Assembly: GCA_964644045.1 (NCBI GenBank)
Contig: CAZXUK010000006.1
Location: 42,659-58,274, forward strand
Length of the DNA stretch: 15,616 nt
Reading direction: 5' to 3'
DNA from: an uncultured Gammaproteobacteria bacterium
GTDB lineage: Bacteria; Patescibacteriota; Patescibacteriia; Patescibacteriales; JAGXOH01
Shown here in pieces: positions 4,957 to 15,616 of the stretch; positions within the stretch are counted from its first letter, which is position 1, and the number at the start of each line of letters is the position of its first letter. The notes under the pieces were generated by a model. It saw nothing but the letters and a program-made list of their open reading frames with translations. It ran no database searches and had not been told where the DNA came from. The position numbers and the translations under genes are program-made.

Positions 4957-4976
4957 ACTGCTTCCGGCTGGGTCTA

Positions 4977-5010
4977 AGGTGCGATTTTTCTAAAATCGCA
5001 CCTTTTTTTA
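4977..5010 (+). terminator. Rho-independent terminator
   Basis: Stem aggtgcgatttt / aaaatcgcacct with a 3-nt loop, then TTTTTTT at 5003-5009. Confidence 0.85.
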
Positions 5011-5022
5011 TTTTTTAAAATT

Positions 5023-5031
5023 TGCTATAAT
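5023..5031 (+). promoter_or_regulatory. Extended -10 promoter element TGcTATAAT
   Basis: TGCTATAAT at 5023-5031, about 28 nt upstream of the 5060 ATG. The same gctataataaaa 12-mer recurs at 5538-5549. Confidence 0.55.
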
Positions 5032-5059
5032 AAAATTAATCAATTTTAACTTAAAAGCT

Positions 5060-5449
5060 ATGAAAAAAATAGGTATTTTATTATTTTTGTTCGTTTTTTC
5101 TTTTTTTCTTTTCTCTCCTTGTTTGGCTCAGAGCTCTAAAGATACTGAAGGCGGAGGTCCTGACAGCGGAGTGACAGGAGAATTCCCCAATCCTTTGGGA
5201 GAAGGAGTAACAGAAAGCCCGGAGCTTTTGATCAAAAGAATTATTAATGGAATTTTGGGAGTAGTGGGCTCTTTGGCCTTGCTTATGTTTATCTACGGCG
5301 GTTTGGTCTGGATGACCGCGGCCGGAAACAATGAAAGAGTGGAGAAGGGGAAAAATATCTTGATTTGGGCCACTATCGGTTTGGTGGTTATTTTCGCATC
5401 TTATGCCATAGTTAGTTTCATTATCGAGAGTTTAACCGGAGGCGGTTAA
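5060..5449 (+). CDS. Small secreted two-TM protein resembling TrbC/VirB2-type pilin
   Basis: 129 aa. Signal peptide (cleavage predicted near CLA/QSS), a Gly/Pro-rich soluble stretch, then two hydrophobic helices separated by a short charged loop (AAGNNERVEKGKN), and a Gly-rich C-terminus. Confidence 0.45.
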   Translation: MKKIGILLFLFVFSFFLFSPCLAQSSKDTEGGGPDSGVTGEFPNPLGEGVTESPELLIKRIINGILGVVGSLALLMFIYGGLVWMTAAGNNERVEKGKNILIWATIGLVVIFASYAIVSFIIESLTGGG

Positions 5450-5466
5450 AAGACTATTTTTTTAAC

Positions 5467-5500
5467 AACCACCGACTTTTTAGAGTCGGTGGTTTTTTTA
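5467..5500 (+). terminator. Rho-independent terminator
   Basis: Stem aaccaccgact / agtcggtggtt with loop ttttag, followed by T-run 5493-5499. Confidence 0.85.
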
Positions 5501-5569: not shown

Positions 5570-6589
5570 ATGGATCAAAAGTTAAAAAATTTCTTAAATG
5601 AGAGCGCTCGTAAAATAGACCCGATCCTTAAAGAGTTATTGCAATCTTATCTGGAAAAGAGATTTTATAAGCTAATTGGTCAGCAAATTTCTTCCGGAGG
5701 CAAAAGATTGCGTCCCGCCCTGGTTTTGGCCTCGGGCAAAATGATGGGAGCGCGGGAAAAGGATTTGCTTTATCCGGCCACGGGGGTGGAGATTTTGCAC
5801 AACAGCACCCTGATCACCGATGATATTATAGATAAAAGCGAAGTCAGGCGAGGCAGGCCTACGGTTTGGAAAAAATTCGGTCGTTCCGTGGCCGAATGCG
5901 TGGCCATGGATTATGCGGCCACGGTTTTTTTGGCCGCTAATCGATCACCTTATTCCCAAGAGATTACCGAGATCTATTCCCGTGCCTTTAAAACCATTTG
6001 GAGCGGGGAAATTCTGGATATTTTATTTGAGCAGAAAGGTAGGGAAGATGAGCCCTATATAATTAAGAATCGTTTTAAGAATGTTTCCTTGAATTCTTAT
6101 TATAAAATGGCGGGGAAAAAAACCGCTGTTTTGTTTCAGGGTTGTTGTGAAATCGGAGGGGTCTGCGCCCGGGCCGGGGAAAAAGATTTGCAAACCCTGA
6201 GTGAATATGGTTATAATCTGGGCATGGCTTTCCAAATTCGCGATGATATTTTGGATATATTCGGGGAGGAGAAGGATTTTGGCAAAAAAATAGGCAAGGA
6301 CATAAAAGAAAGAAAATTGGGCAATATCGTGATTTTTTATGCTTTGAAAAATTTATCTCCTGCTGACAGAAAGAAGATTTTTCGAATTTTGGAAAAGAAG
6401 GAGATCGGAGAAAGAGAGATAAAAGAGGGGATTGCTTTAATTAAAAAAACCCCGGCTCATGATCAGGCCTTTGCTTTGGGTAAAAAATATATAACAAAAG
6501 CCAAAAATAATTTAGAAAAATTGCCTCAAAATAATTGGAATAAGATATTATTGTCTCTAACTGATTTTGTAATAGAAAGAGAAAAATAA
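5570..6589 (+). CDS. Trans-polyprenyl diphosphate synthase (IspA/IdsA family; chain length C20 or longer likely)
   Basis: 339 aa. Contains GGKRLRP, a first Asp-rich motif DDIID followed by xxxRRGRPT (short 4-residue form), and a second Asp-rich motif FQIRDDILD. Residues at -4/-5 before the first motif are small (S, T). Confidence 0.9.
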   Translation: MDQKLKNFLNESARKIDPILKELLQSYLEKRFYKLIGQQISSGGKRLRPALVLASGKMMGAREKDLLYPATGVEILHNSTLITDDIIDKSEVRRGRPTVWKKFGRSVAECVAMDYAATVFLAANRSPYSQEITEIYSRAFKTIWSGEILDILFEQKGREDEPYIIKNRFKNVSLNSYYKMAGKKTAVLFQGCCEIGGVCARAGEKDLQTLSEYGYNLGMAFQIRDDILDIFGEEKDFGKKIGKDIKERKLGNIVIFYALKNLSPADRKKIFRILEKKEIGEREIKEGIALIKKTPAHDQAFALGKKYITKAKNNLEKLPQNNWNKILLSLTDFVIEREK

Positions 6590-6615
6590 TTTTAAATTTA
6601 GTTATCTCCAAGAAT

Positions 6616-7473
6616 ATGAAAAAAAATATAGATTTATATAAAAAAGAAACAGGAAAATTCCTTGCTTTTTTAGAGGAGGAGATAAAAAAGACAGGGATGG
6701 AGGAAGAATTTTTTGCCTCTTCCCGTCGGATCCTGGAAAAAATATCCGCTTCCGTAACCTCTAAATGGCTTTCCGGCAGAAAATATTGTCGGACTTTTTT
6801 CTTGCAAGAAGCTTTCGGCTCTTTTTACCCCTCTTCCTATACCTCTGTTTCTTTATTTTTAGACGCTTTGGTTAATATTTCCGATGATCTTTGTGATGAA
6901 CCTTTAGAAAAAGAAGAGATCAGTTTGTATATGGCTGAATGCTTGAAGCTTTTGTCCTTACTTAATTCTTCTTCTCAGGCATCCCTACTACAGCCAGGTC
7001 TGGGCGTTTATTTTAGCAAATTATTATCCTTGGTTATGGCTGAGAATTTTTATAGGGAAAAAATTTCCCAAAGCGGGGGCTATAAGCAAATAGTTGAGGA
7101 TTCGTCTAAATTATTGTTAATTCGCGCTCAAGATATAGATGTCTTTACAGAAATTGCTTTACTTGATTTGGACTCACAAAAAGACCTTGATTTAATAAAG
7201 AAAATAGCCAGAATCTTTCGGGCCATAAATATTTTTAAAAAAGATATAAAAGACCTAGATTATGATCTTTCCCGCAATATCAAAACCATAGTCACCATAC
7301 TCCGAGATAAAGATATAGATTTTAAAAATTATACCCAGGATTTGTTAGAAATTTTAGAGACAAAAGTAAAAGAGTTGTCTGTTCCACAAAACAAAGACTT
7401 AGAGTCGCCTTTTCAAAATTTCCAGATAATGATAGAAAGAGAAAAAGAGGAGATTCTGGAAATGTTGGATTAA
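6616..7473 (+). CDS. Hypothetical helical protein with isoprenoid-synthase-like Asp-rich motifs (possible divergent squalene/phytoene-synthase-like or class I terpene-synthase-like enzyme)
   Basis: 285 aa, 26 bp downstream of the polyprenyl synthase with no promoter between them. ISDDLCDE at residues 88-95 and NIFKKDIKDLDYD at residues 205-217 resemble the two Asp-rich motifs of head-to-head trans-IPPS enzymes (xxDDxxD and NIxRDxxED). Confidence 0.5.
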   Translation: MKKNIDLYKKETGKFLAFLEEEIKKTGMEEEFFASSRRILEKISASVTSKWLSGRKYCRTFFLQEAFGSFYPSSYTSVSLFLDALVNISDDLCDEPLEKEEISLYMAECLKLLSLLNSSSQASLLQPGLGVYFSKLLSLVMAENFYREKISQSGGYKQIVEDSSKLLLIRAQDIDVFTEIALLDLDSQKDLDLIKKIARIFRAINIFKKDIKDLDYDLSRNIKTIVTILRDKDIDFKNYTQDLLEILETKVKELSVPQNKDLESPFQNFQIMIEREKEEILEMLD

Positions 7474-7510
7474 TTTTTTAAACAATTTTTTAGCAGTTGT
7501 TTTTTATTTT

Positions 7511-7939
7511 ATGCTTTTAAACTCTGATTTAAAAATTGCTGTGGGCAGTGTAATTGTTTATGACAATAAAGTTTTGATACTAAAAAGAAACGAGGATGAA
7601 GAAGTTCTTCCCGGCCTTTGGGAGCTGCCCAGCGGAAAACAAGAAGAGGGAGAGAATCGGGAAGAAAGTTTGATAAGGGAGGTTAAGGAGGAGACCGGTT
7701 TGGATATAGAAATAATTGCTTTCCTCAGTAGCTTTACTTACAAAGTTAAGAAAGGAAAAACAACCAAAAACATAATTCAATTCAATTTTTTGGTTAAGCC
7801 CGGGGATGCTTCTCCGGTTGTTAAATTAAGTTCTGAGCATTCCGAGTATAAATGGATCGGAGCCAAAGATCTGGAAAAAGCCGAATTAAGCAAGCAAATA
7901 AAAAAAGTTATTAATAAATATTTTCAAACTTATTTATGA
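7511..7939 (+). CDS. Nudix hydrolase
   Basis: 142 aa. Canonical Nudix box GKQEEGENREESLIREVKEETGL (G-x5-E-x7-REVxEETG). No Shine-Dalgarno site upstream. Confidence 0.88.
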   Translation: MLLNSDLKIAVGSVIVYDNKVLILKRNEDEEVLPGLWELPSGKQEEGENREESLIREVKEETGLDIEIIAFLSSFTYKVKKGKTTKNIIQFNFLVKPGDASPVVKLSSEHSEYKWIGAKDLEKAELSKQIKKVINKYFQTYL

Positions 7940-8829
7940 TTTATAAGAATGTTTTAGAAACTATTGGCAATACTCCTTTGGTAAGAATAAATAATTTAAA
8001 CATTAATTCTGAAGTGAATATTTATGCTAAATTAGAAGGGGTAAATCCAGGTGGAAGCATTAAGGATAGGATTGCCCTTAATATGATTAATCAGGCCGAA
8101 GAAGAAGGCGTTTTGGATAAAGAAAAAACTATAATTGAACCCACTTCCGGAAATACCGGCATCGGTCTGGCCATGATAGGAGCGGTTAAGGGCTACAAGA
8201 TTAAAATAGTTATGAGCGAGTCCGTGTCCGAGGAGAGAAAAAGAATGATTAAATCTTTTGGCGCGGAGCTGGTTTTAATAGCCTCGGACGAAGGAACGGA
8301 CGGAGCCATTAGGAAGGCCAAAGAGATTGTAGAGAAAAATCCCAAAGAATATTTTATGCCCAACCAATTTTCCAATCAGTATAATAAAATGGCGCATTAC
8401 AAAACCACGGCTGAGGAGATTTGGACTCAAACCGAAGGCCAGGTTGATTATTTTGTCTCTGCCTTGGGAACCTCGGGAACCATTATGGGAGTAAGCAAAT
8501 ATTTAAAGGAAAAAAATCCGAATATAAAAATTGTTAGTGCTCATCCGCATAAAGATCATTATATTCAAGGGTTAAAAAATATGGAAGAGGCGATTGTGCC
8601 GGAGATTTATGAGGAAAGTAGTATTGATGAGACGGTTATGGTGGATAGTGAGAAAGCTTTTGAGGTTACTCGTCAAATTGTTCGCCAAGAAGGTATTTTT
8701 GTGGGCATGAGCAGTGGAGCGGCCATGTTTGCGGCCTTGCAGGTGGCCGAGAAAATAAAAGCAGGAAACATTGTGGTTATTTTTCCGGACAGAGGAGAAA
8801 AATATCTTTCTACCCCCTTGTTTGAGTAA
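7936..8829 (+). CDS. cysK: Cysteine synthase (O-acetylserine sulfhydrylase, CysK/CysM family; PLP-dependent)
   Basis: 297 aa. PLP-lysine motif SIKDR, TSGNTG, GTSGT and a C-terminal NIVVIFPDRGEKYLSTPLF that matches the CysK C-terminus closely. The start overlaps the Nudix stop by 4 nt (ATGA). Confidence 0.88.
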   Translation: MIYKNVLETIGNTPLVRINNLNINSEVNIYAKLEGVNPGGSIKDRIALNMINQAEEEGVLDKEKTIIEPTSGNTGIGLAMIGAVKGYKIKIVMSESVSEERKRMIKSFGAELVLIASDEGTDGAIRKAKEIVEKNPKEYFMPNQFSNQYNKMAHYKTTAEEIWTQTEGQVDYFVSALGTSGTIMGVSKYLKEKNPNIKIVSAHPHKDHYIQGLKNMEEAIVPEIYEESSIDETVMVDSEKAFEVTRQIVRQEGIFVGMSSGAAMFAALQVAEKIKAGNIVVIFPDRGEKYLSTPLFE

Positions 8830-8969: not shown

Positions 8970-11528
8970 ATGTATACTCAAAGAAAATGGTGTGTTTTTG
9001 TTGTTTTAGCATTCCTGGTGTTTACCTGTTTTTTCGCTTTTATGAATATGCGGGTAAAGCCGGGCGGCATTGTGGATGATGCTGTGATGGCGGAAGAAGA
9101 TCTTGTTAACCAAGGCGGAAGAGTAATTGATTCTCTGCGGAGTCAGGGCCTAGCTCCGGGAGACGCGGCTATTTTTTGTCTGCCCTTTTTATACCGGGGC
9201 GAGGCCATGAAAAAGGATTTGGCCTTTCTCCAAGATTTTACCCAAAAATTGGAGAGGGCTTTTCCGCGTTACAAAGTCTTCAGCTTGGCCAATATGCCCC
9301 GTTTTCGGGATGTTGAGGACTCCTATTTGGAGACTCAAAGTTATGTCAGTCCCGAGGTGTTGGCAGATTTTGACCCGGGTGATTGGAAGCGAGAGGTACT
9401 CCGCGACCCCAAGGTGGCCGGGGTGTTTATTGCTCCTGATTTTTCTTCGGCCAATGTCATTTTAACCTTTCCCAGAGGTTATGACGAAATGCAGGTCGGG
9501 CGGGAGATTATGGAGTTTTTAATGGATAGGGAGTGCGCTTGGTATGAGTGGTATTTGATAGATGATATCAAGCTCGCTTCCCAGTTCCTGCGAAACTTTG
9601 ACTCTGAGGTGCCTGAGTCTCTTCAGAGAGATCAGGACAGGCACCGGACCGAGGACGGATCGATTAAATCGGTTCTGCCCGGTGGCTGGGTTATCGGACG
9701 AGTCCTTATGACCGGGGCTTTTTACTCCAGTCTAATCTGGATCTTGTCCGGCTCCATTATTTTGGCAGCCTTGGTCTTTTGGCTGTCTTTTGCCAACTTA
9801 AGACAGACTGCTATTGCTCTGGTTTGTCTGCTCCTGGCCCTGATTTGGACCCGCGGTTCAATCGGCCTGTTGCAGACCTTGGGCTTTAGTATTCAGGGAA
9901 AAATGCTTTACGAGACAGTTTATTTCGTTTTAGTGTTTACTTCCCTGATTGTCTCCGGGATTTCCTTTGTAGAAAGGGTCTTTGACGCCTACAACGAAAA
10001 ACGCAAAGGTAATCCGGAACTGAGCCGGGCCGAGGTTTGGAAAAAAACCAAGGCCAAGGACATAGAGTTGATTGATGAAAGGATTTTAATGACCGGTCTG
10101 GTGGCAATCTTCGGATTTGCTACGCTTTACCAGATTGAGATCAGGCAGATCTTAGAGATCGGCTTTTTCTCCGCCTTGGGACTGGTTTTCCTTTTACTTT
10201 TCACTCTTTACCTGGTTCCGGCTGTCCATATTTTAGTCGGAGGTGAGCATTCTCGGCAAGAGAATTCAATTCCGGATAAATGGTGGCGGATCTTGGATTG
10301 GCTGGTTCGGAAAAGTTTCCAACTGGCCACTCCTAAAAATAGAGAGTTTAGAAAAAAAGGCTGGAGCGCGGTCGCGGTAGTGGCCGTTTTGTTTCTGCTT
10401 ATGTCTTCCTTGGTGGCTTCCGACCATGTCGGTCCTTCCAAGGGTTTTAGTTTTGTGGATATCAAAACCGAACCCTTGGAGTTTATTAAGGACACTTTGG
10501 TCTATGAGGCCTCAGAGGAGATTAACAGAAAAGATAACTACGGCTTTGACCGGGCCATGTTCGTGATCCAAAGTAAAAAGGAAGGAGACACTCCGGCTGT
10601 TTATCGCCCCGAGTTTTTAAGGGAGGTAGATAGTTTTCAAGAGACCATAGCCGAAGACCCTTACCTGAAAGGAAAAATCAGGTATATTTATTCGGTTCTG
10701 GATATTCTGGAGATTTTATGCCGGGAAAATTACGGCCATCACTTGCCCCAAACTCAAGCTGAAGCGGCTGACAGCCTTCGGCTTATACGATCCGAGATCG
10801 GGATTACCGGCCAAAGGCAGTTATGGAGCCGGGAGGCTTTGATAGTCCAGGTGTCGGTATCCAGCACCAATTCCAATATTCAGGAGTTTGTGCTTAACCG
10901 GGTGCTGGAGATATCCGGGGAAAGTTTTCCTGACCTAAAAGTGCATACTTTTGGCAAGGTGGCTATGTATGCCCGTTCAGACAAATATTTGCGGGAGAGG
11001 AAGCCGGTTAACGCCGGGATGCAGATCTTCTGGATATTCGGGTTTACCTTTGCCTGGATTGCCTGGCGTAATCGGCGTTTTCGCAAGTCCCTGAAGGATG
11101 ATTTTTATCTTTCTTCCTTTAGAGCCGGTTTGGCTATTTGCCTGCCCTTCGTCTTTGCCTCCACCATGATAGCTTTTATTATGATGGCCATGCGCATCCC
11201 CTTAAATCAGGCCACGGCCTGCATTACCGCCTTGACCGTGAATGCGGCCATTGATTTTTCCCTTTACATAGTGGCTGATTATCAGGCTGCTTTGATTAAG
11301 GGAGGGGGATATTTGGAGGCGATTAAATACGCCGTCCTAACGCGGGGGCGAGTGGTGGTAATTGATGTGGCTATCAATACTGCTTGTTTTGCTCCTTTGA
11401 TGATTTCGCCTTTTGCTCCCATAGCGGACATTGGCTGGATCATGATGACAATGCTCATTTTTTGCGGTTTTGGGGCTATGGTGCTTTTACCCATGGTTTT
11501 GCCCTTGGCTGTGAAGGAAAACAACTAA
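8970..11528 (+). CDS. MMPL/RND-superfamily exporter (12 TM helices, two large extracytoplasmic loops; HpnN/MmpL-like size)
   Basis: 852 aa. The pattern TM1, a roughly 200-aa loop, TM2-6 repeats twice (second TM7 around residues 455-475, TM8-12 at about 690-850). This is the internal duplication typical of the RND/MMPL/SSD fold. Strong RBS. Confidence 0.75.
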   Translation: MYTQRKWCVFVVLAFLVFTCFFAFMNMRVKPGGIVDDAVMAEEDLVNQGGRVIDSLRSQGLAPGDAAIFCLPFLYRGEAMKKDLAFLQDFTQKLERAFPRYKVFSLANMPRFRDVEDSYLETQSYVSPEVLADFDPGDWKREVLRDPKVAGVFIAPDFSSANVILTFPRGYDEMQVGREIMEFLMDRECAWYEWYLIDDIKLASQFLRNFDSEVPESLQRDQDRHRTEDGSIKSVLPGGWVIGRVLMTGAFYSSLIWILSGSIILAALVFWLSFANLRQTAIALVCLLLALIWTRGSIGLLQTLGFSIQGKMLYETVYFVLVFTSLIVSGISFVERVFDAYNEKRKGNPELSRAEVWKKTKAKDIELIDERILMTGLVAIFGFATLYQIEIRQILEIGFFSALGLVFLLLFTLYLVPAVHILVGGEHSRQENSIPDKWWRILDWLVRKSFQLATPKNREFRKKGWSAVAVVAVLFLLMSSLVASDHVGPSKGFSFVDIKTEPLEFIKDTLVYEASEEINRKDNYGFDRAMFVIQSKKEGDTPAVYRPEFLREVDSFQETIAEDPYLKGKIRYIYSVLDILEILCRENYGHHLPQTQAEAADSLRLIRSEIGITGQRQLWSREALIVQVSVSSTNSNIQEFVLNRVLEISGESFPDLKVHTFGKVAMYARSDKYLRERKPVNAGMQIFWIFGFTFAWIAWRNRRFRKSLKDDFYLSSFRAGLAICLPFVFASTMIAFIMMAMRIPLNQATACITALTVNAAIDFSLYIVADYQAALIKGGGYLEAIKYAVLTRGRVVVIDVAINTACFAPLMISPFAPIADIGWIMMTMLIFCGFGAMVLLPMVLPLAVKENN

Positions 11529-11532
11529 ACTC

Positions 11533-11569
11533 GGGGTGCGGTCAACTCCTGTTGCCGCACCCTTTTTTC
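11533..11569 (+). terminator. GC-rich hairpin plus T-run inside the operon (partial terminator or attenuator) between the exporter and LolA-like genes
   Basis: Stem gggtgcggtcaac / gttgccgcaccc with loop tcct, then TTTTTT at 11563-11568. The RBS agaggagg for the next gene follows immediately. Confidence 0.65.
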
Positions 11570-11584
11570 TAAAGAGGAGGCAGT

Positions 11585-12355
11585 ATGAAAAGGATAATGA
11601 TTTTTCTTCTTCTGGGAATATTATTCGCTTCCCTTGCCTGGGCTGAGGGTTTTACCACTGCCCGGGACGTGATCGAAAAGTCTTACGAGTTTTATCGTCA
11701 GGGCGCGGAAGTGGAGTTTGAGAAGCTGCGCCTGGAGGTAAAATACGAGGATGGTTATTCGGTGAACAAAGAGTTGGAAAGGTGGATAAAATATAATCCA
11801 AAAAAAGAGGATAAAGTTTTTATCAATTTTACGGCTCCGGAAATGGACAAAGGGCTTAAGCTTTTGGTTCATCGCCGGCTTAGCCAAAGTGATTTGATTT
11901 GGCTTAAGATGCCCTCTATGCATCGCTCGCGCCGGATCTCGGGTCAGGACGAGGGCAAATATTTTGCCGAAACCGACCTCACCTATCGGGACACGGCTCA
12001 GCTGGTGGGGGAGAATACCAGCGACTATAAGTATAGCTTCGTGGATTCCGGTGACTCCAAATGGGTGATAGAGGCCTTGCCCAAACCGGGCATAACCGCT
12101 GTGTATGATAAAAGAGTCTTTTTCCTTAACGAGAATTATGTTATTGAAAAAGTTCTGTATTATCGCCACGGGCAATTGGGTAAAATCCAGCTAAACAAGG
12201 ACATAGTCCGGGAGGACAACGGGTGTTGGCGGAGTGACTCGGTTGTGTTTATTAATGAATTTTATAGCCGGGTAACTAACATAAAAATTCCCGAAAGGAA
12301 ATTTACCGGTTTTACCAACCCGCCGAGTTTTTCCCGGAGAGATTTAAGGAGGTAG
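11585..12355 (+). CDS. Secreted LolA-like 'outer membrane lipoprotein-sorting protein' family protein (periplasmic, not a lipoprotein)
   Basis: 256 aa. Signal peptide ending AWA/EG with no lipobox Cys. The segment FTAPEMDKGLKLLVH...DLIWLKMPSMHRSRRISGQDEGKYFAETDLTYRD matches the remembered signature of the LolA-like family that accompanies MMPL exporters. Confidence 0.55.
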   Translation: MKRIMIFLLLGILFASLAWAEGFTTARDVIEKSYEFYRQGAEVEFEKLRLEVKYEDGYSVNKELERWIKYNPKKEDKVFINFTAPEMDKGLKLLVHRRLSQSDLIWLKMPSMHRSRRISGQDEGKYFAETDLTYRDTAQLVGENTSDYKYSFVDSGDSKWVIEALPKPGITAVYDKRVFFLNENYVIEKVLYYRHGQLGKIQLNKDIVREDNGCWRSDSVVFINEFYSRVTNIKIPERKFTGFTNPPSFSRRDLRR

Positions 12356-12357
12356 AG

Positions 12358-13584
12358 ATGAGAAAAATTGTGATTCTTTTTGTTTTTTTTGTTCTTGCGC
12401 CTCTCTCTGCTTCTGCCTTGAATTTTGATCTGGAAATAGAAGGGCAAGCTTCCAGTTATTTCTATGAAGAAGAAGAGGTGCCTCTGGAAGAAGATGAAAG
12501 GTATTATGGGGAAGCAGAAGTGATTTTGCCGGCTCGTTTAAACGCGAATAATTGGGAGCTCTTGCTTGAGCCCCGGATTCGCGTTGATAGCGAGGAGATT
12601 AGCCAAGGAGGCGAAGACCCCCGGGATTTTCGTCGGCCCATAGTAGGAGTAAGAGAGGCCTATTTTGCCTTTTGGCAGGAGAAGCTGGAACTTCGCTTGG
12701 GCTACCAGATCGCTGATTGGAGTATGACCGATACGGTCTCTCCCAGTGACAACCTGAATCCTCTGGATCTAACCCTGATTCCGGACTGGGAAAGGCGGAG
12801 TATTCCGCTCGTGACCGCTCGTTACGGCTATGACACCTATTTGGAAGCGGCCTATAAACCCTTTTTTTCTCCCTCTTTTCTCCCTGATTTTAAATGGAAA
12901 CGCGAAAAAGAAGGAGTGGAGTTTCTAAAGCAAAAAGAAGAAGAGGACAAGGCCCAGTTCGCCCTGAGGGCGGGAGGCATCTTTTGGGGCACTGATTGGC
13001 AGATCTGTTATTACCAAGGTTATGCTGACAGCCCTTACGCAGAAGTGGAGCGTCTCACTCTCTCGGGTGTTGAGCTTCGCCCCCGCTATTCTGAGGAGGA
13101 AGTGGGGTCTCTGGGGCTGGCCCGGGATGTGTTTGCCGGAGTTGTTTTCCGGGCCGAGGCCGGATATTTCTCCCAAGACTACGGTGATGATTTTTATCAG
13201 TATGTGGTCGGCTTGGAGAAACACTGGCAAAGTGCCTTAAGTCTGGGAGATGAGCTTTTTTTCCTGGTTCAATACTCCGGGGAAGAAGTGGCTGAGGAGG
13301 ATGAAGAAATTACTCCTCTAACCGACTTTAGACGGATCTTTAGAGATTGCCTTTTAGTGAAAGCCTATTACCAATTCGGCCGAGGCAGTCACTGGAGGCT
13401 TAAGGTCCGTGGTTCCTATAATCTGGAGAATTATGACAGTTTTTGGGAGCCTGCCCTGGAGTGGAAAGGGGATCACTTCTCCTGTGAACTGGGGGCCCAA
13501 GTCATTGACGGGCCAGAAGAGAGTTTTTGGGGAGGATACAAGGAGAATGACTGTATCTTTCTCAAAACCAAGATTAAATTTTAA
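12358..13584 (+). CDS. Putative outer-membrane beta-barrel protein (secreted, C-terminal Phe)
   Basis: 408 aa. The ATG lies 2 nt after the upstream stop, with RBS aaggagg, so translation is likely coupled. Signal peptide ASA/LN. Many amphipathic alternating strands with aromatic residues (LELRLGYQIADW, FALRAGGIFWGTDWQICYYQGY, RLKVRGSYNL). The terminus IFLKTKIKF matches the OMP C-terminal signature. Confidence 0.55.
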   Translation: MRKIVILFVFFVLAPLSASALNFDLEIEGQASSYFYEEEEVPLEEDERYYGEAEVILPARLNANNWELLLEPRIRVDSEEISQGGEDPRDFRRPIVGVREAYFAFWQEKLELRLGYQIADWSMTDTVSPSDNLNPLDLTLIPDWERRSIPLVTARYGYDTYLEAAYKPFFSPSFLPDFKWKREKEGVEFLKQKEEEDKAQFALRAGGIFWGTDWQICYYQGYADSPYAEVERLTLSGVELRPRYSEEEVGSLGLARDVFAGVVFRAEAGYFSQDYGDDFYQYVVGLEKHWQSALSLGDELFFLVQYSGEEVAEEDEEITPLTDFRRIFRDCLLVKAYYQFGRGSHWRLKVRGSYNLENYDSFWEPALEWKGDHFSCELGAQVIDGPEESFWGGYKENDCIFLKTKIKF

Positions 13585-14850: not shown

Positions 14851-15616
14851 ATGTCTTTTTATGCTCTTACAGGTTTGATTAACGGAGTAACAAGTGTTGT
14901 TGCCGGTTTTTTTATTTTAAAGAAAAATTTTAGCTCGCAAATTAACAAAGTTTTTACTTTTCTTTGTTTTTCCATAGCTTTATGGAGTTTTGCTTATTTT
15001 TTTTGGTTAAACAGTCAAAGCGCAGAAGCGGCCTTATGGTGGTCCCGTATTTTTATGGCCGGGGCTATTTTTATTCCCGTGTTTTTCCTACATTTTGTAG
15101 TTTTGTTTTTAGGGGCTAAAAAAATTAAGTCCTTTCTAAAATGGGTTTATCTATTATTTATTGTTTTTTTAGCTTTTGATTTTACTCCTTGGTTTATTAA
15201 GGGCCTTAAATCTTTTCCCGATTTTGAATTTTGGCCTGAGCCTGGCATAGCTTTTCATATTTTTTTATTCTTTTGGTGTTTGATTTGGTTTTTGGCCTTT
15301 TTTCTTCTTTTTGAAAAATTATTTTTTGAGAAATTAAAACCTGTTAAAGAAAATCAACTTTTTTATTTATTTCTCGGCTCTCTAATCGCCACCGTGGGAG
15401 GGGCAACCAATTATTTTCTGTGGTATGACGTTCCCATTCTTCCTATAGGAAATGTATTAGTACCTTTATTTGTTTTTGCTACATTTTATACTATTACCAA
15501 ATATAATTTTATGAACCTCAAGGCGGTGCTTTCCGAGGTGTTGGTAATTATTTTTTCTTTACTTCTTTTGGGAAATATTTTTGTGGCTAATAATATATTG
15601 GAATATATTTGGAATA
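14851..15616 (+). CDS. N-terminal part of a polytopic membrane sensor (7TM-receptor-type input domain of a signal-transduction protein); truncated by the window end
   Basis: The ORF is open from the ATG at 14851 to the last base. It was missed by the ORF track because it has no stop in the window. At least six or seven hydrophobic helices rich in F, W and L are separated by short loops. This resembles the 7TM N-terminal domains of membrane histidine kinases and diguanylate cyclases. Confidence 0.5.
   Translation, partial: MSFYALTGLINGVTSVVAGFFILKKNFSSQINKVFTFLCFSIALWSFAYFFWLNSQSAEAALWWSRIFMAGAIFIPVFFLHFVVLFLGAKKIKSFLKWVYLLFIVFLAFDFTPWFIKGLKSFPDFEFWPEPGIAFHIFLFFWCLIWFLAFFLLFEKLFFEKLKPVKENQLFYLFLGSLIATVGGATNYFLWYDVPILPIGNVLVPLFVFATFYTITKYNFMNLKAVLSEVLVIIFSLLLLGNIFVANNILEYIWN

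Follow-up and report, generated by a model that had tools for sequence, protein, structure and literature searches.

A distant relative of the chain-elongating prenyl diphosphate synthases and its gene family in ultra-small bacteria and archaea

Introduction

The locus described here raises the question of what kind of protein is encoded directly behind a polyprenyl synthase gene in a stretch of DNA of 15,616 nucleotides, which was analyzed as a whole and is called the window in the following. The original prediction had seen in this protein, termed X below, a divergent member of the squalene/phytoene synthases or, alternatively, a class I terpene cyclase, which might generate a C30/C40-type isoprenoid together with the synthase and a Nudix hydrolase. 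The question concerns more than a single genome. The CPR bacteria and DPANN archaea, in which relatives of X occur, represent a substantial part of microbial diversity. Most of them have not been cultured, and as a rule they are unable to produce membranes of their own; the purpose of their few isoprenoid genes is, to our knowledge, largely unknown.

Results

The polyprenyl synthase and the surrounding operon

The first gene of the pair (positions 5570-6589, + strand) codes for a trans-isoprenyl diphosphate synthase (IDS) of 339 amino acids, which matches Pfam polyprenyl_synt at 1.4e-58 and is labeled by NCBI as a polyprenyl synthetase family protein. Its first Asp-rich motif (FARM), DDIID (aa 84-88, nt 5819-5833), followed by RRG (aa 93-95), is located exactly where it had been predicted, and the second motif (SARM) reads DDILD (aa 225-229). 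The small residues at positions -5/-4, which had been taken as a likeness to long-chain enzymes, are indeed present (S79-T80, ahead of L-I-T-D84-D85); they resemble the A-T pair of the decaprenyl synthase 3mzv, and the closest relatives of the IDS carry Tyr or Trp at -5. In NCBIfam, the short-chain IdsA/GGPPS models match best, none of them reaching the curated cut-off, and no membership in a named long-chain equivalog of NCBIfam was found. The closest solved structure, 4dhd from Pyrobaculum (E 2.2e-62), contains the same insertion.

A strong intrinsic-terminator-like hairpin with a 12-bp stem and a T-run (5467-5494, + strand), detected by a terminator scan, ends the upstream pilin-like gene and delimits the IDS-X unit on its 5' side; a TATAAT hexamer between this hairpin and the IDS start is a consensus match only. 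The gene for X (6616-7473, + strand; 285 aa) starts 26 nt downstream of the IDS stop, and a promoter scan found no site in this gap, promoter-like sites being no commoner across the window than in shuffled sequence. The gene for a Nudix hydrolase of 142 amino acids (7511-7939, + strand), whose Nudix box (aa 42-63) is canonical and which matches Pfam NUDIX at 1e-20, is apparently co-transcribed with the IDS-X unit; its NCBIfam matches are MutT-like, none above the cut-off. The predicted coordinates of X and the Nudix gene as well as the IDS-X spacing proved exact. The Nudix stop is overlapped by 4 nt by the start of a cysteine synthase gene of the CysK/CysM type (7936-8829, + strand; TIGR01136, 399 bits versus a cut-off of 344), a close orthologue of which lies downstream of X and the histidine kinase in locus L005. 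CysK is a syntenic housekeeping gene outside the isoprenoid function. Independent ENA, NCBI, and JGI assemblies show the same gene order, IDS-X-Nudix-CysK-MMPL, which rules out the chimerism suspected from a jump in GC content at ~8970.

Motifs, homology and fold of X

The two acidic segments of X comprise ISDDLCDE (nt 6877-6900, aa 88-95) and NIFKKDIKDLDYD (nt 7228-7266, aa 205-217), and the starts of the two motifs are separated by 117 residues, close to the predicted value of about 115. Among 132 members of the X family, which share mutual identities of only 17-48%, D90 and D210 never vary, and conservation reaches at least 90% at D91, D94, K209, D213, and D217. The same conservation is seen across 28 genomic loci, and the segments are therefore not chance features of a single sequence. 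In these 28 loci, which come from two domains of life and encode proteins of ~30-40% identity, ~22 polar or aromatic residues of X are invariant, including K56 and R59, and they are retained with or without an adjacent kinase gene.

No Pfam match was obtained for X, and neither X nor its distant members matched an isoprenoid family of Pfam or NCBIfam even at E<=10; likewise, the PF00348 profile failed to match X or six distant relatives at E<=10, and searches of the PDB sequences with X and the family profiles A1 and A2 returned chance matches only. A profile-profile comparison by hhalign aligned profile A2 with the linked IDSs over 186 columns (probability of homology 84%, which is below 95%; E 7.3e-6), the negative control reaching 0.2%. 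In this alignment, SGRKYCRT of X is matched to GGKRLRP of the IDSs and D217 to the Asp of region VI, DDLCD falls on the FARM, and KDIKD falls on the SARM. The two acidic segments have therefore been recognized correctly as Asp-rich motifs. As in IDSs, each of the two lies at the C-terminal end of a helix (73-94 and 188-212), and a loop between helices carries the region-I residues. The protein forms an all-alpha bundle which is superimposable on members of the class I isoprenoid synthase fold; its top structural matches are chain elongators, with heteromeric hexaprenyl and heptaprenyl synthases among the matches, and the structural scores are clearly lower for terpene cyclases than for IDSs. 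These data support a class I isoprenoid synthase fold for X, and the alignment to IDSs predicts that its motifs face one common cavity. As judged from the sequence and structure comparisons, X is a very divergent relative of the chain-elongating prenyl diphosphate synthases, not of the squalene/phytoene synthases. The proposed fold has thus stood, and the kinship suggested along with it has given way to the IDSs as nearest class.

The mapped motifs show which features of the IDSs have been kept. Region I, which binds the diphosphate of IPP in trans-IDSs (GGKRxRP), is retained as S-G-R-K56-Y-C-R59-T, which preserves the pattern GxKxxR, and the FARM as D90-D91-L-C-D94-E95. The loop behind the FARM reads EPLEKEE and lacks the RRG, the KT position is occupied by D173-I-D175, and a pseudo-SARM, K209-D210-I-K-D213, is found instead of DDxxD. 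Moreover, helix D carries polar residues (D83 and N87) on the side that makes up the prenyl pocket in IDSs.

Distribution and gene neighborhoods of the X family

The X family consists of ~195 clusters, all of them unannotated, in CPR bacteria and DPANN archaea, and literature searches found no description of it. X founds an unannotated family confined to these ultra-small prokaryotes, and HMB66185.1 ("hypothetical protein") together with the ~195 similar clusters becomes assignable to the isoprenoid synthase superfamily.

Sensor partners, which had been missed in the original prediction, dominate the neighborhoods of X. A HisKA_7TM histidine kinase is encoded directly 3' of X in 18 of the 19 CPR loci, the window being the sole exception. 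Of the 17 CPR loci in which the distance between the X stop and the kinase start was determined, 15 show a value of -1 to 27 nt. In DPANN loci, which lack the kinase, X is adjoined by a V4R-like protein (six of eight members match V4R, best E 6.6e-5) and by KaiC ATPases (6e-61); the archaeal X genes form transcription units of their own and converge with the V4R/KaiC genes. The window also contains the N-terminal region of a HisKA_7TM histidine kinase (14851-15615, + strand; Pfam HisKA_7TM, 4.8e-16), truncated by the window end. It was rejected as a displaced cognate kinase, as it shares only 30-32% identity (E 8e-10) with the X-linked kinases, which are 35-64% identical to each other; by its sequence, it is a paralogue from the same domain family.

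Genes of isoprenoid metabolism recur as well. The flanks fetched for the 28 X loci contain a short-chain IDS in 10 cases, in six of them adjacent to X, and none in the other 18; the pairing of polyprenyl synthase and X noted in the window thus recurs in other genomes. A gene of the geranylgeranyl reductase family adjoins X in six archaeal loci and in L012, and a fusion of IPP isomerase and IDS is linked to X in L007. The Nudix-fold domain of this fusion was considered as support for a role of the Nudix hydrolase and discarded, because it represents the type-1 IPP isomerase and shares only 29% identity over 82 residues with the Nudix protein of the window. No Nudix-box gene occurs in any other X locus, which speaks against the hydrolase as a functional partner; Nudix and CysK are not conserved partners of X. 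A ComX-like small ORF was also sought near X, and none of the small ORFs is conserved across the loci, those of L013 and L016 being the only similar pair; ComX-type peptides are highly variable, which limits the weight of this negative result.

Discussion

Starting from the observed fold, homology, motif correspondence, conservation, and gene neighborhoods, we infer that X is catalytic, namely an IDS-fold prenyltransferase with an acceptor beyond the usual IPP chemistry, and we give this proposal, including the mechanism outlined below, an even chance of being correct. An allylic prenyl diphosphate would be bound via Mg2+ at the intact FARM (D90/D91/D94), whereas the second motif would have turned into a pseudo-SARM (K209-D210-x-x-D213), with the RRG and KT of the chain elongators gone. 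A FARM combined with a metal-free pseudo-SARM defines the ComQ/Ord1 class, in which the second motif reads NDxxD in StheQ and DDxxA in Ord1 (PMC12510300; bioRxiv 10.64898/2026.08.29.745113). Because of its pseudo-SARM and the lost RRG and KT, X most likely resembles the IDS-fold prenyltransferases with non-IPP acceptors and may act like ComQ/StheQ, Ord1/XiaM, or MoeN5, whereas action as a chain elongator, head-to-head synthase, or cyclase would be unlikely. The retention of K56 and R59 in region I suggests that a phosphate or diphosphate is still present on the second substrate. As donor, X would use the product of the neighboring synthase, presumably C15-C20 in most genomes and possibly longer in the window because of the Ser-Thr pair at -5/-4 of its IDS. 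Since the family is co-encoded with sensors of membranes or hydrophobic ligands, the product or ligand of X probably feeds a signaling or membrane-homeostasis circuit. The locus in the window has lost its cognate kinase, leaving IDS-X followed by the unrelated Nudix and CysK genes.

Several observations argue against this preferred interpretation. The conserved Lys and Arg of region I, which we take to be absent from ComQ, could indicate IPP as substrate. The polar helix-D face (D83/N87) and D173/D175 at the KT position are unexpected for binding a long hydrophobic chain and could point to a non-prenyl ligand. Furthermore, an IDS is missing from most of the fetched loci, and no peptide-substrate gene is conserved beside X.

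Among the alternatives, X may be non-enzymatic and serve as a cytoplasmic sensor or accessory subunit for prenyl diphosphates (or another Mg-diphosphate), reporting the status of isoprenoid precursors to the 7TM kinase or to V4R/KaiC. The tight spacing to the kinase genes suggests co-translation and possibly a complex, the lack of RRG, KT, and the first SARM Asp of true IDSs would fit a protein without catalysis, and the invariance of the motifs alone is no proof of catalysis, because sensors conserve their ligand-binding residues too. However, the lineage of the window keeps X with every invariant residue in spite of lacking the cognate kinase, and the archaeal X genes are transcribed separately from, and toward, those of V4R/KaiC. 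Moreover, enzymes of the ComQ/Ord1 type carry the full FARM plus a pseudo-SARM as their catalytic signature (PMC12510300). We regard the sensor function as unlikely.

Two further activities appear improbable to a similar degree. If X still condensed IPP, it would be either an unusual chain elongator or the second subunit of a heteromeric synthase with the adjacent IDS, as might be expected from its best structural matches to chain elongators and to heteromeric hexaprenyl/heptaprenyl synthases, the conserved IPP-binding Lys/Arg and FARM, and the gap of only 26 nt in the window. RRG, KT, and the first SARM Asp help to bind the allylic diphosphate and the third Mg2+ in canonical IDSs, but the former two are missing from X and the last is a Lys; non-catalytic small subunits are devoid of Asp-rich motifs, whereas X conserves them, and most X loci contain no adjacent IDS. 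As a class I terpene synthase, X would ionize the prenyl diphosphate from the neighboring synthase and release a cyclic or acyclic terpene hydrocarbon or alcohol. A DDxxD is present, as this alternative requires, but the second segment reads K-D-I-K-D-x-x-x-D, without the Ser/Thr-Glu register of (N/D)Dxx(S/T)xxxE, and the structural scores favor the IDSs. Finally, a head-to-head enzyme of the squalene/phytoene synthase type making a C30/C40 backbone is hardly credible, because X neither matches the SQS_PSY profile (PF00494) nor has this group as its closest structural class, although FRAINIFKKDIKD superficially resembles the second motif of these enzymes, F-Q-x-x-N-I-x-R-D-x-x-E-D, and the superfold and a motif distance of ~117-120 residues are shared; the proposed C30/C40 product is thus not supported.

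As a tentative extension of the prenyltransferase interpretation, which we consider possible but doubtful, X may synthesize a signal derived from isoprenoids, either intracellular or in the membrane, as part of a module common to CPR and DPANN. Prenyl diphosphates supplied by the linked IPP isomerase, IDS, and geranylgeranyl reductase-like enzymes would be converted by X to a hydrophobic product, to be read by the 7TM kinase in bacteria and by V4R-like/KaiC proteins in archaea. The logic would be similar to that of ComQ-ComX-ComP, but without a peptide, and would represent a so far unrecognized circuit of signaling or membrane homeostasis that is peculiar to ultra-small prokaryotes depending on a host. 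In any case, what the X family adds to the isoprenoid synthase superfamily is a compact branch, unannotated and strongly conserved, which is wired to sensors and to isomerase, IDS, and reductase-like genes. Should X prove to be an enzyme, the IDS-fold prenyltransferases would gain a new active-site variant, in which a FARM is combined with KDxxD and the KT and SARM positions are charge-swapped, and isoprenoid-based signaling or membrane sensing in episymbionts would be indicated. With 285 residues, it offers a well-defined soluble target which can be co-expressed with the neighboring synthase.

Comparison with known systems

Compared to the trans-IDSs (PF00348; FPPS, GGPPS, HexPPS), X is distinguished by the missing RRG, the replacement of KT by D-I-D and of the first SARM Asp by Lys, a loop between SARM and region VI that is shorter by 11 residues, and the polar helix-D face. 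The class I terpene cyclases (Terpene_synth_C / Terpene_syn_C_2) differ by their NSE/DTE triad, which X lacks, and their families give no match. With the SQS_PSY family (CrtB, CrtM, HpnD, SQS), X shares the superfold, two acidic motifs ~120 residues apart, and a superficial resemblance of FRAINIFKKD to FQxxNIxRD.

The parallel to ComQ is an analogy of architecture and motifs only: a presumptive B. subtilis ComQ sequence matched only generic IDS models (E ~3e-6) and reached 0.5% with X in hhalign, so that no specific similarity to X emerged. Unlike in the ComQ/StheQ systems, no conserved peptide gene (comX/stheX) adjoins X or separates it from the kinase, nor does an indole-alkaloid cluster adjoin it; a kinase is absent from the archaeal loci, and the KT Lys, which in StheQ (K174) makes contact with the diphosphate, is missing from X. 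What X has in common with ComQ/StheQ and Ord1 is the combination of an intact FARM with a degenerate second motif, present as DDxxD(E) and KDxxD.

Gene order and annotation

The unnamed 285-aa protein X, encoded at 6616-7473, is the founding member of a strongly conserved but unannotated branch within the isoprenoid synthase superfamily, which occurs only in CPR and DPANN organisms and is tied to signalling proteins; its main interest lies there rather than in a squalene/phytoene synthase (SQS/PSY)-type role. The gene is co-directional with those of a 339-aa isoprenyl diphosphate synthase (IDS, 5570-6589), located 26 nt upstream, and a 142-aa Nudix protein (7511-7939), whose stop codon is overlapped by a cysteine synthase ORF (CysK, 7936-8829). 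The original prediction placed every motif at its exact position (nt 5819-5833 for DDIID, 6877-6900 for ISDDLCDE and 7228-7266 for NIFKKDIKDLDYD), and Pfam and NCBIfam scans upheld the polyprenyl_synt, NUDIX and CysK/M assignments; X matched no family in these scans. The NCBI labels are "Patescibacteria group bacterium" for the organism and "hypothetical protein" for X. Since the order IDS-X-Nudix-CysK-MMPL recurs in independent ENA, NCBI and JGI assemblies, the window is not chimeric.

Upstream of the IDS gene, a T4SS_pilin-like gene (5060-5449; PF18895, 1.9e-13) lies between two strong hairpins of terminator type (4976-5004 and 5467-5494), and the region 4976-5494 looks like a separate and probably highly expressed transcription unit. 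Downstream, a block of higher GC content (8970-13584; 0.47-0.51 vs 0.32-0.40 around X) encodes an MMPL/RND-like transporter (852 aa), a LolA_like/DUF1329 protein (256 aa) and a secreted protein (408 aa) without Pfam match. These make up an export trio for lipids or lipoproteins in outer-membrane style, which one would not expect in a Patescibacteria genome. The block may be a horizontally acquired insert; its gene order is also found in independent assemblies.

Distribution and conserved residues

A word-indexed search with X retrieved 16 relatives, all unnamed, and exhaustive searching of 1.84 billion representatives with a profile gave 195 clusters at E<=1e-3. Among the best 150 of these, none exceeds 320 residues, most comprise about 260-310, and nearly all match in one stretch; the shorter proteins look like fragments. 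Scanning GTDB species genomes yielded 23 loci; the labels of 13 point to CPR or unclassified bacteria (Nealson-, Wildermuth-, Sacchari-, Moranii-, Woese- and Dojkabacteria, Microgenomates, Parcubacteria) and those of nine to DPANN or unclassified archaea (Nanoarchaeota, Micrarchaeota, Iainarchaeum, Nanohalarchaeota). The sole non-CPR bacterial label belongs to an X-kinase-response regulator locus (L019, contig CAYSEQ010000004.1) from a MAG labelled "uncultured Gammaproteobacteria", and reflects either a binning error or a genuine exception.

Despite an overall identity of roughly 30-40%, about 22 residues are essentially invariant in 28 loci of both domains: W51, K56, R59, T60, D83, N87, D90, D91, D94, E95, E143, R170, D173, D175, F177, F201, R202, N205, K209, D210, D213 and D217. 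Such an array of charged residues speaks for conservation of a Mg-diphosphate site.

Genomic neighbourhoods

As judged from its neighbourhood genes, X is linked to isoprenoid precursor enzymes on one side and to membrane/hydrophobic-ligand sensors on the other. The predicted link to a polyprenyl synthase holds: 10 of 28 loci have an IDS gene within the examined flanks, and in six it is directly adjacent. On a Portnoybacteria-type contig (L007, 953-2614; L006 is the same locus, partial), a 553-aa fusion of type-1 IPP isomerase and polyprenyl synthase is encoded directly upstream of X and a kinase, its isomerase domain scoring above the curated NCBIfam cut-offs (NF002995, 132 bits vs 127). Most X-linked IDSs carry Tyr or Trp at position -5 from the first Asp-rich motif (FARM), which is associated with C15-C20 products in chain-length work. 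The window IDS has Ser-Thr at -5/-4 instead of the Tyr seen in the nearest solved homologue (4dhd, E 2e-62) and the closest linked homologues; the pair resembles the Ala-Thr of decaprenyl diphosphate synthase 3mzv. By the classical chain-length rule for residues before the FARM, the product may plausibly exceed C20. Among NCBIfam models, this IDS comes closest to short-chain IdsA/GGPPS, though no score reaches its cut-off.

In 18 of 19 distinct CPR loci, X is directly followed by a histidine kinase of about 540 aa with an N-terminal HisKA_7TM domain, at a distance of -1 to 27 nt in 15 of the 17 measured; a receiver-only response regulator then follows in four. A role of X as sensor or accessory protein, which these arrangements bring to mind, is rather unlikely, the invariant residues being kept with or without an adjacent kinase. 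In a Dojkabacteria locus (L023, 2020-4626, minus strand), three tandem ORFs of 230-272 aa upstream of a divergent IDS gene cluster with the kinase family and may be 7TM-only or fragmentary paralogues.

Among the CPR loci, only the window lacks a kinase after X. A HisKA_7TM ORF that starts at 14851 and is truncated by the window end (N-terminus, 14851-15615) was rejected as the cognate kinase and regarded as a paralogue (30-32% identity vs 35-64% among cognate kinases). The order X, kinase, 204-aa gene, CysK in another locus (L005, 231-4505), compared with X, Nudix, CysK in the window (6616-8829), suggests that, in the window lineage, Nudix replaced the kinase at the syntenic position, as both CysK are close orthologues (phmmer 1e-150). 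No other X locus contains a Nudix-box gene, so that Nudix and CysK seem to be neighbours of X that are co-transcribed but unrelated.

The DPANN archaeal loci place X between a divergent flavoprotein of the geranylgeranyl-reductase family (TIGR02032, 153 bits vs cut-off 159) and a convergent pair of a highly conserved V4R-like protein (L020, L021, L024-L026, L029-L031) and one to three KaiC-type ATPases. V4R was matched by six of eight members (best E 6.6e-5), and the invariant H146, C150, C157 and C165 represent a possible metal or cofactor site. The V4R-like protein (about 220 aa) is 50-63% identical across DPANN phyla and always paired with the tandem ATPases, three of them in L025.

Fold and active site

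Solved structures hold no relative of X detectable by single-sequence or family-profile searches. An AlphaFold2 model from a 16-sequence alignment is confident and all-helical (13 helices, pLDDT 90.2, pTM 0.89), and its top Foldseek matches all share the isoprenoid synthase fold, with weak E-values (best 0.03). The fold was thus correctly predicted. The synthase link holds as well; assignment to the SQS/PSY subclass, a C30/C40 product and a prenyl-diphosphate-related Nudix role were not borne out. The alignment of 132 family members matched that of nine polyprenyl synthases encoded beside X homologues in hhalign (probability 84%, E 7.3e-6, 186 columns; unrelated control family, 0.2%).

Conserved between X and the IDSs are region I (S-G-R-K56-Y-C-R59-T for GGKRLRP), the FARM (D90-D91-L-C-D94 for DDIID) and the invariant Asp of region VI (D217). 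The second Asp-rich motif (SARM, DDILD) corresponds to K209-D210-I-K-D213, with Lys in place of the first Asp, the RRG after the FARM is missing, and KT is replaced by D173-I-D175. As in IDSs, long helices (73-94 and 188-212) carry the two motifs at their C-termini, and an interhelical loop holds region I; going by the alignment, both motifs would face one cavity. For all the kinship to IDSs, these changes go with a low probability that X is a true chain elongator or heteromer subunit, and a terpene synthase of the same fold is equally improbable. A head-to-head synthase is very improbable, the only CrtM-like chain ranking 37th in Foldseek.

Comparison with known systems

The function, substrate and product of X are inferences. 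The CPR loci strikingly parallel the comQXPA architecture of IDS-like enzyme, multi-TM kinase and response regulator; the small ORFs near X include no conserved peptide gene, and X showed no specific sequence similarity to a provisional ComQ sequence. The recently solved "all-alpha-helical prenyltransferases" are defined by an intact FARM and a degenerate second motif, the pseudo-SARM being DDxxA in Ord1 and NDxxD, metal-free at that site, in the ComQ homologue StheQ; in each of them FPP serves as donor and the acceptor is not IPP (PMC12510300; bioRxiv 10.64898/2026.08.29.745113). The conserved K56/R59 suggest that the co-substrate of X would be phosphorylated. With an intact FARM and a degenerate second motif, as in Ord1 and StheQ, X is most likely a non-canonical prenyl diphosphate enzyme, whose FARM would bind an allylic prenyl diphosphate for transfer or some other conversion in a non-canonical reaction.
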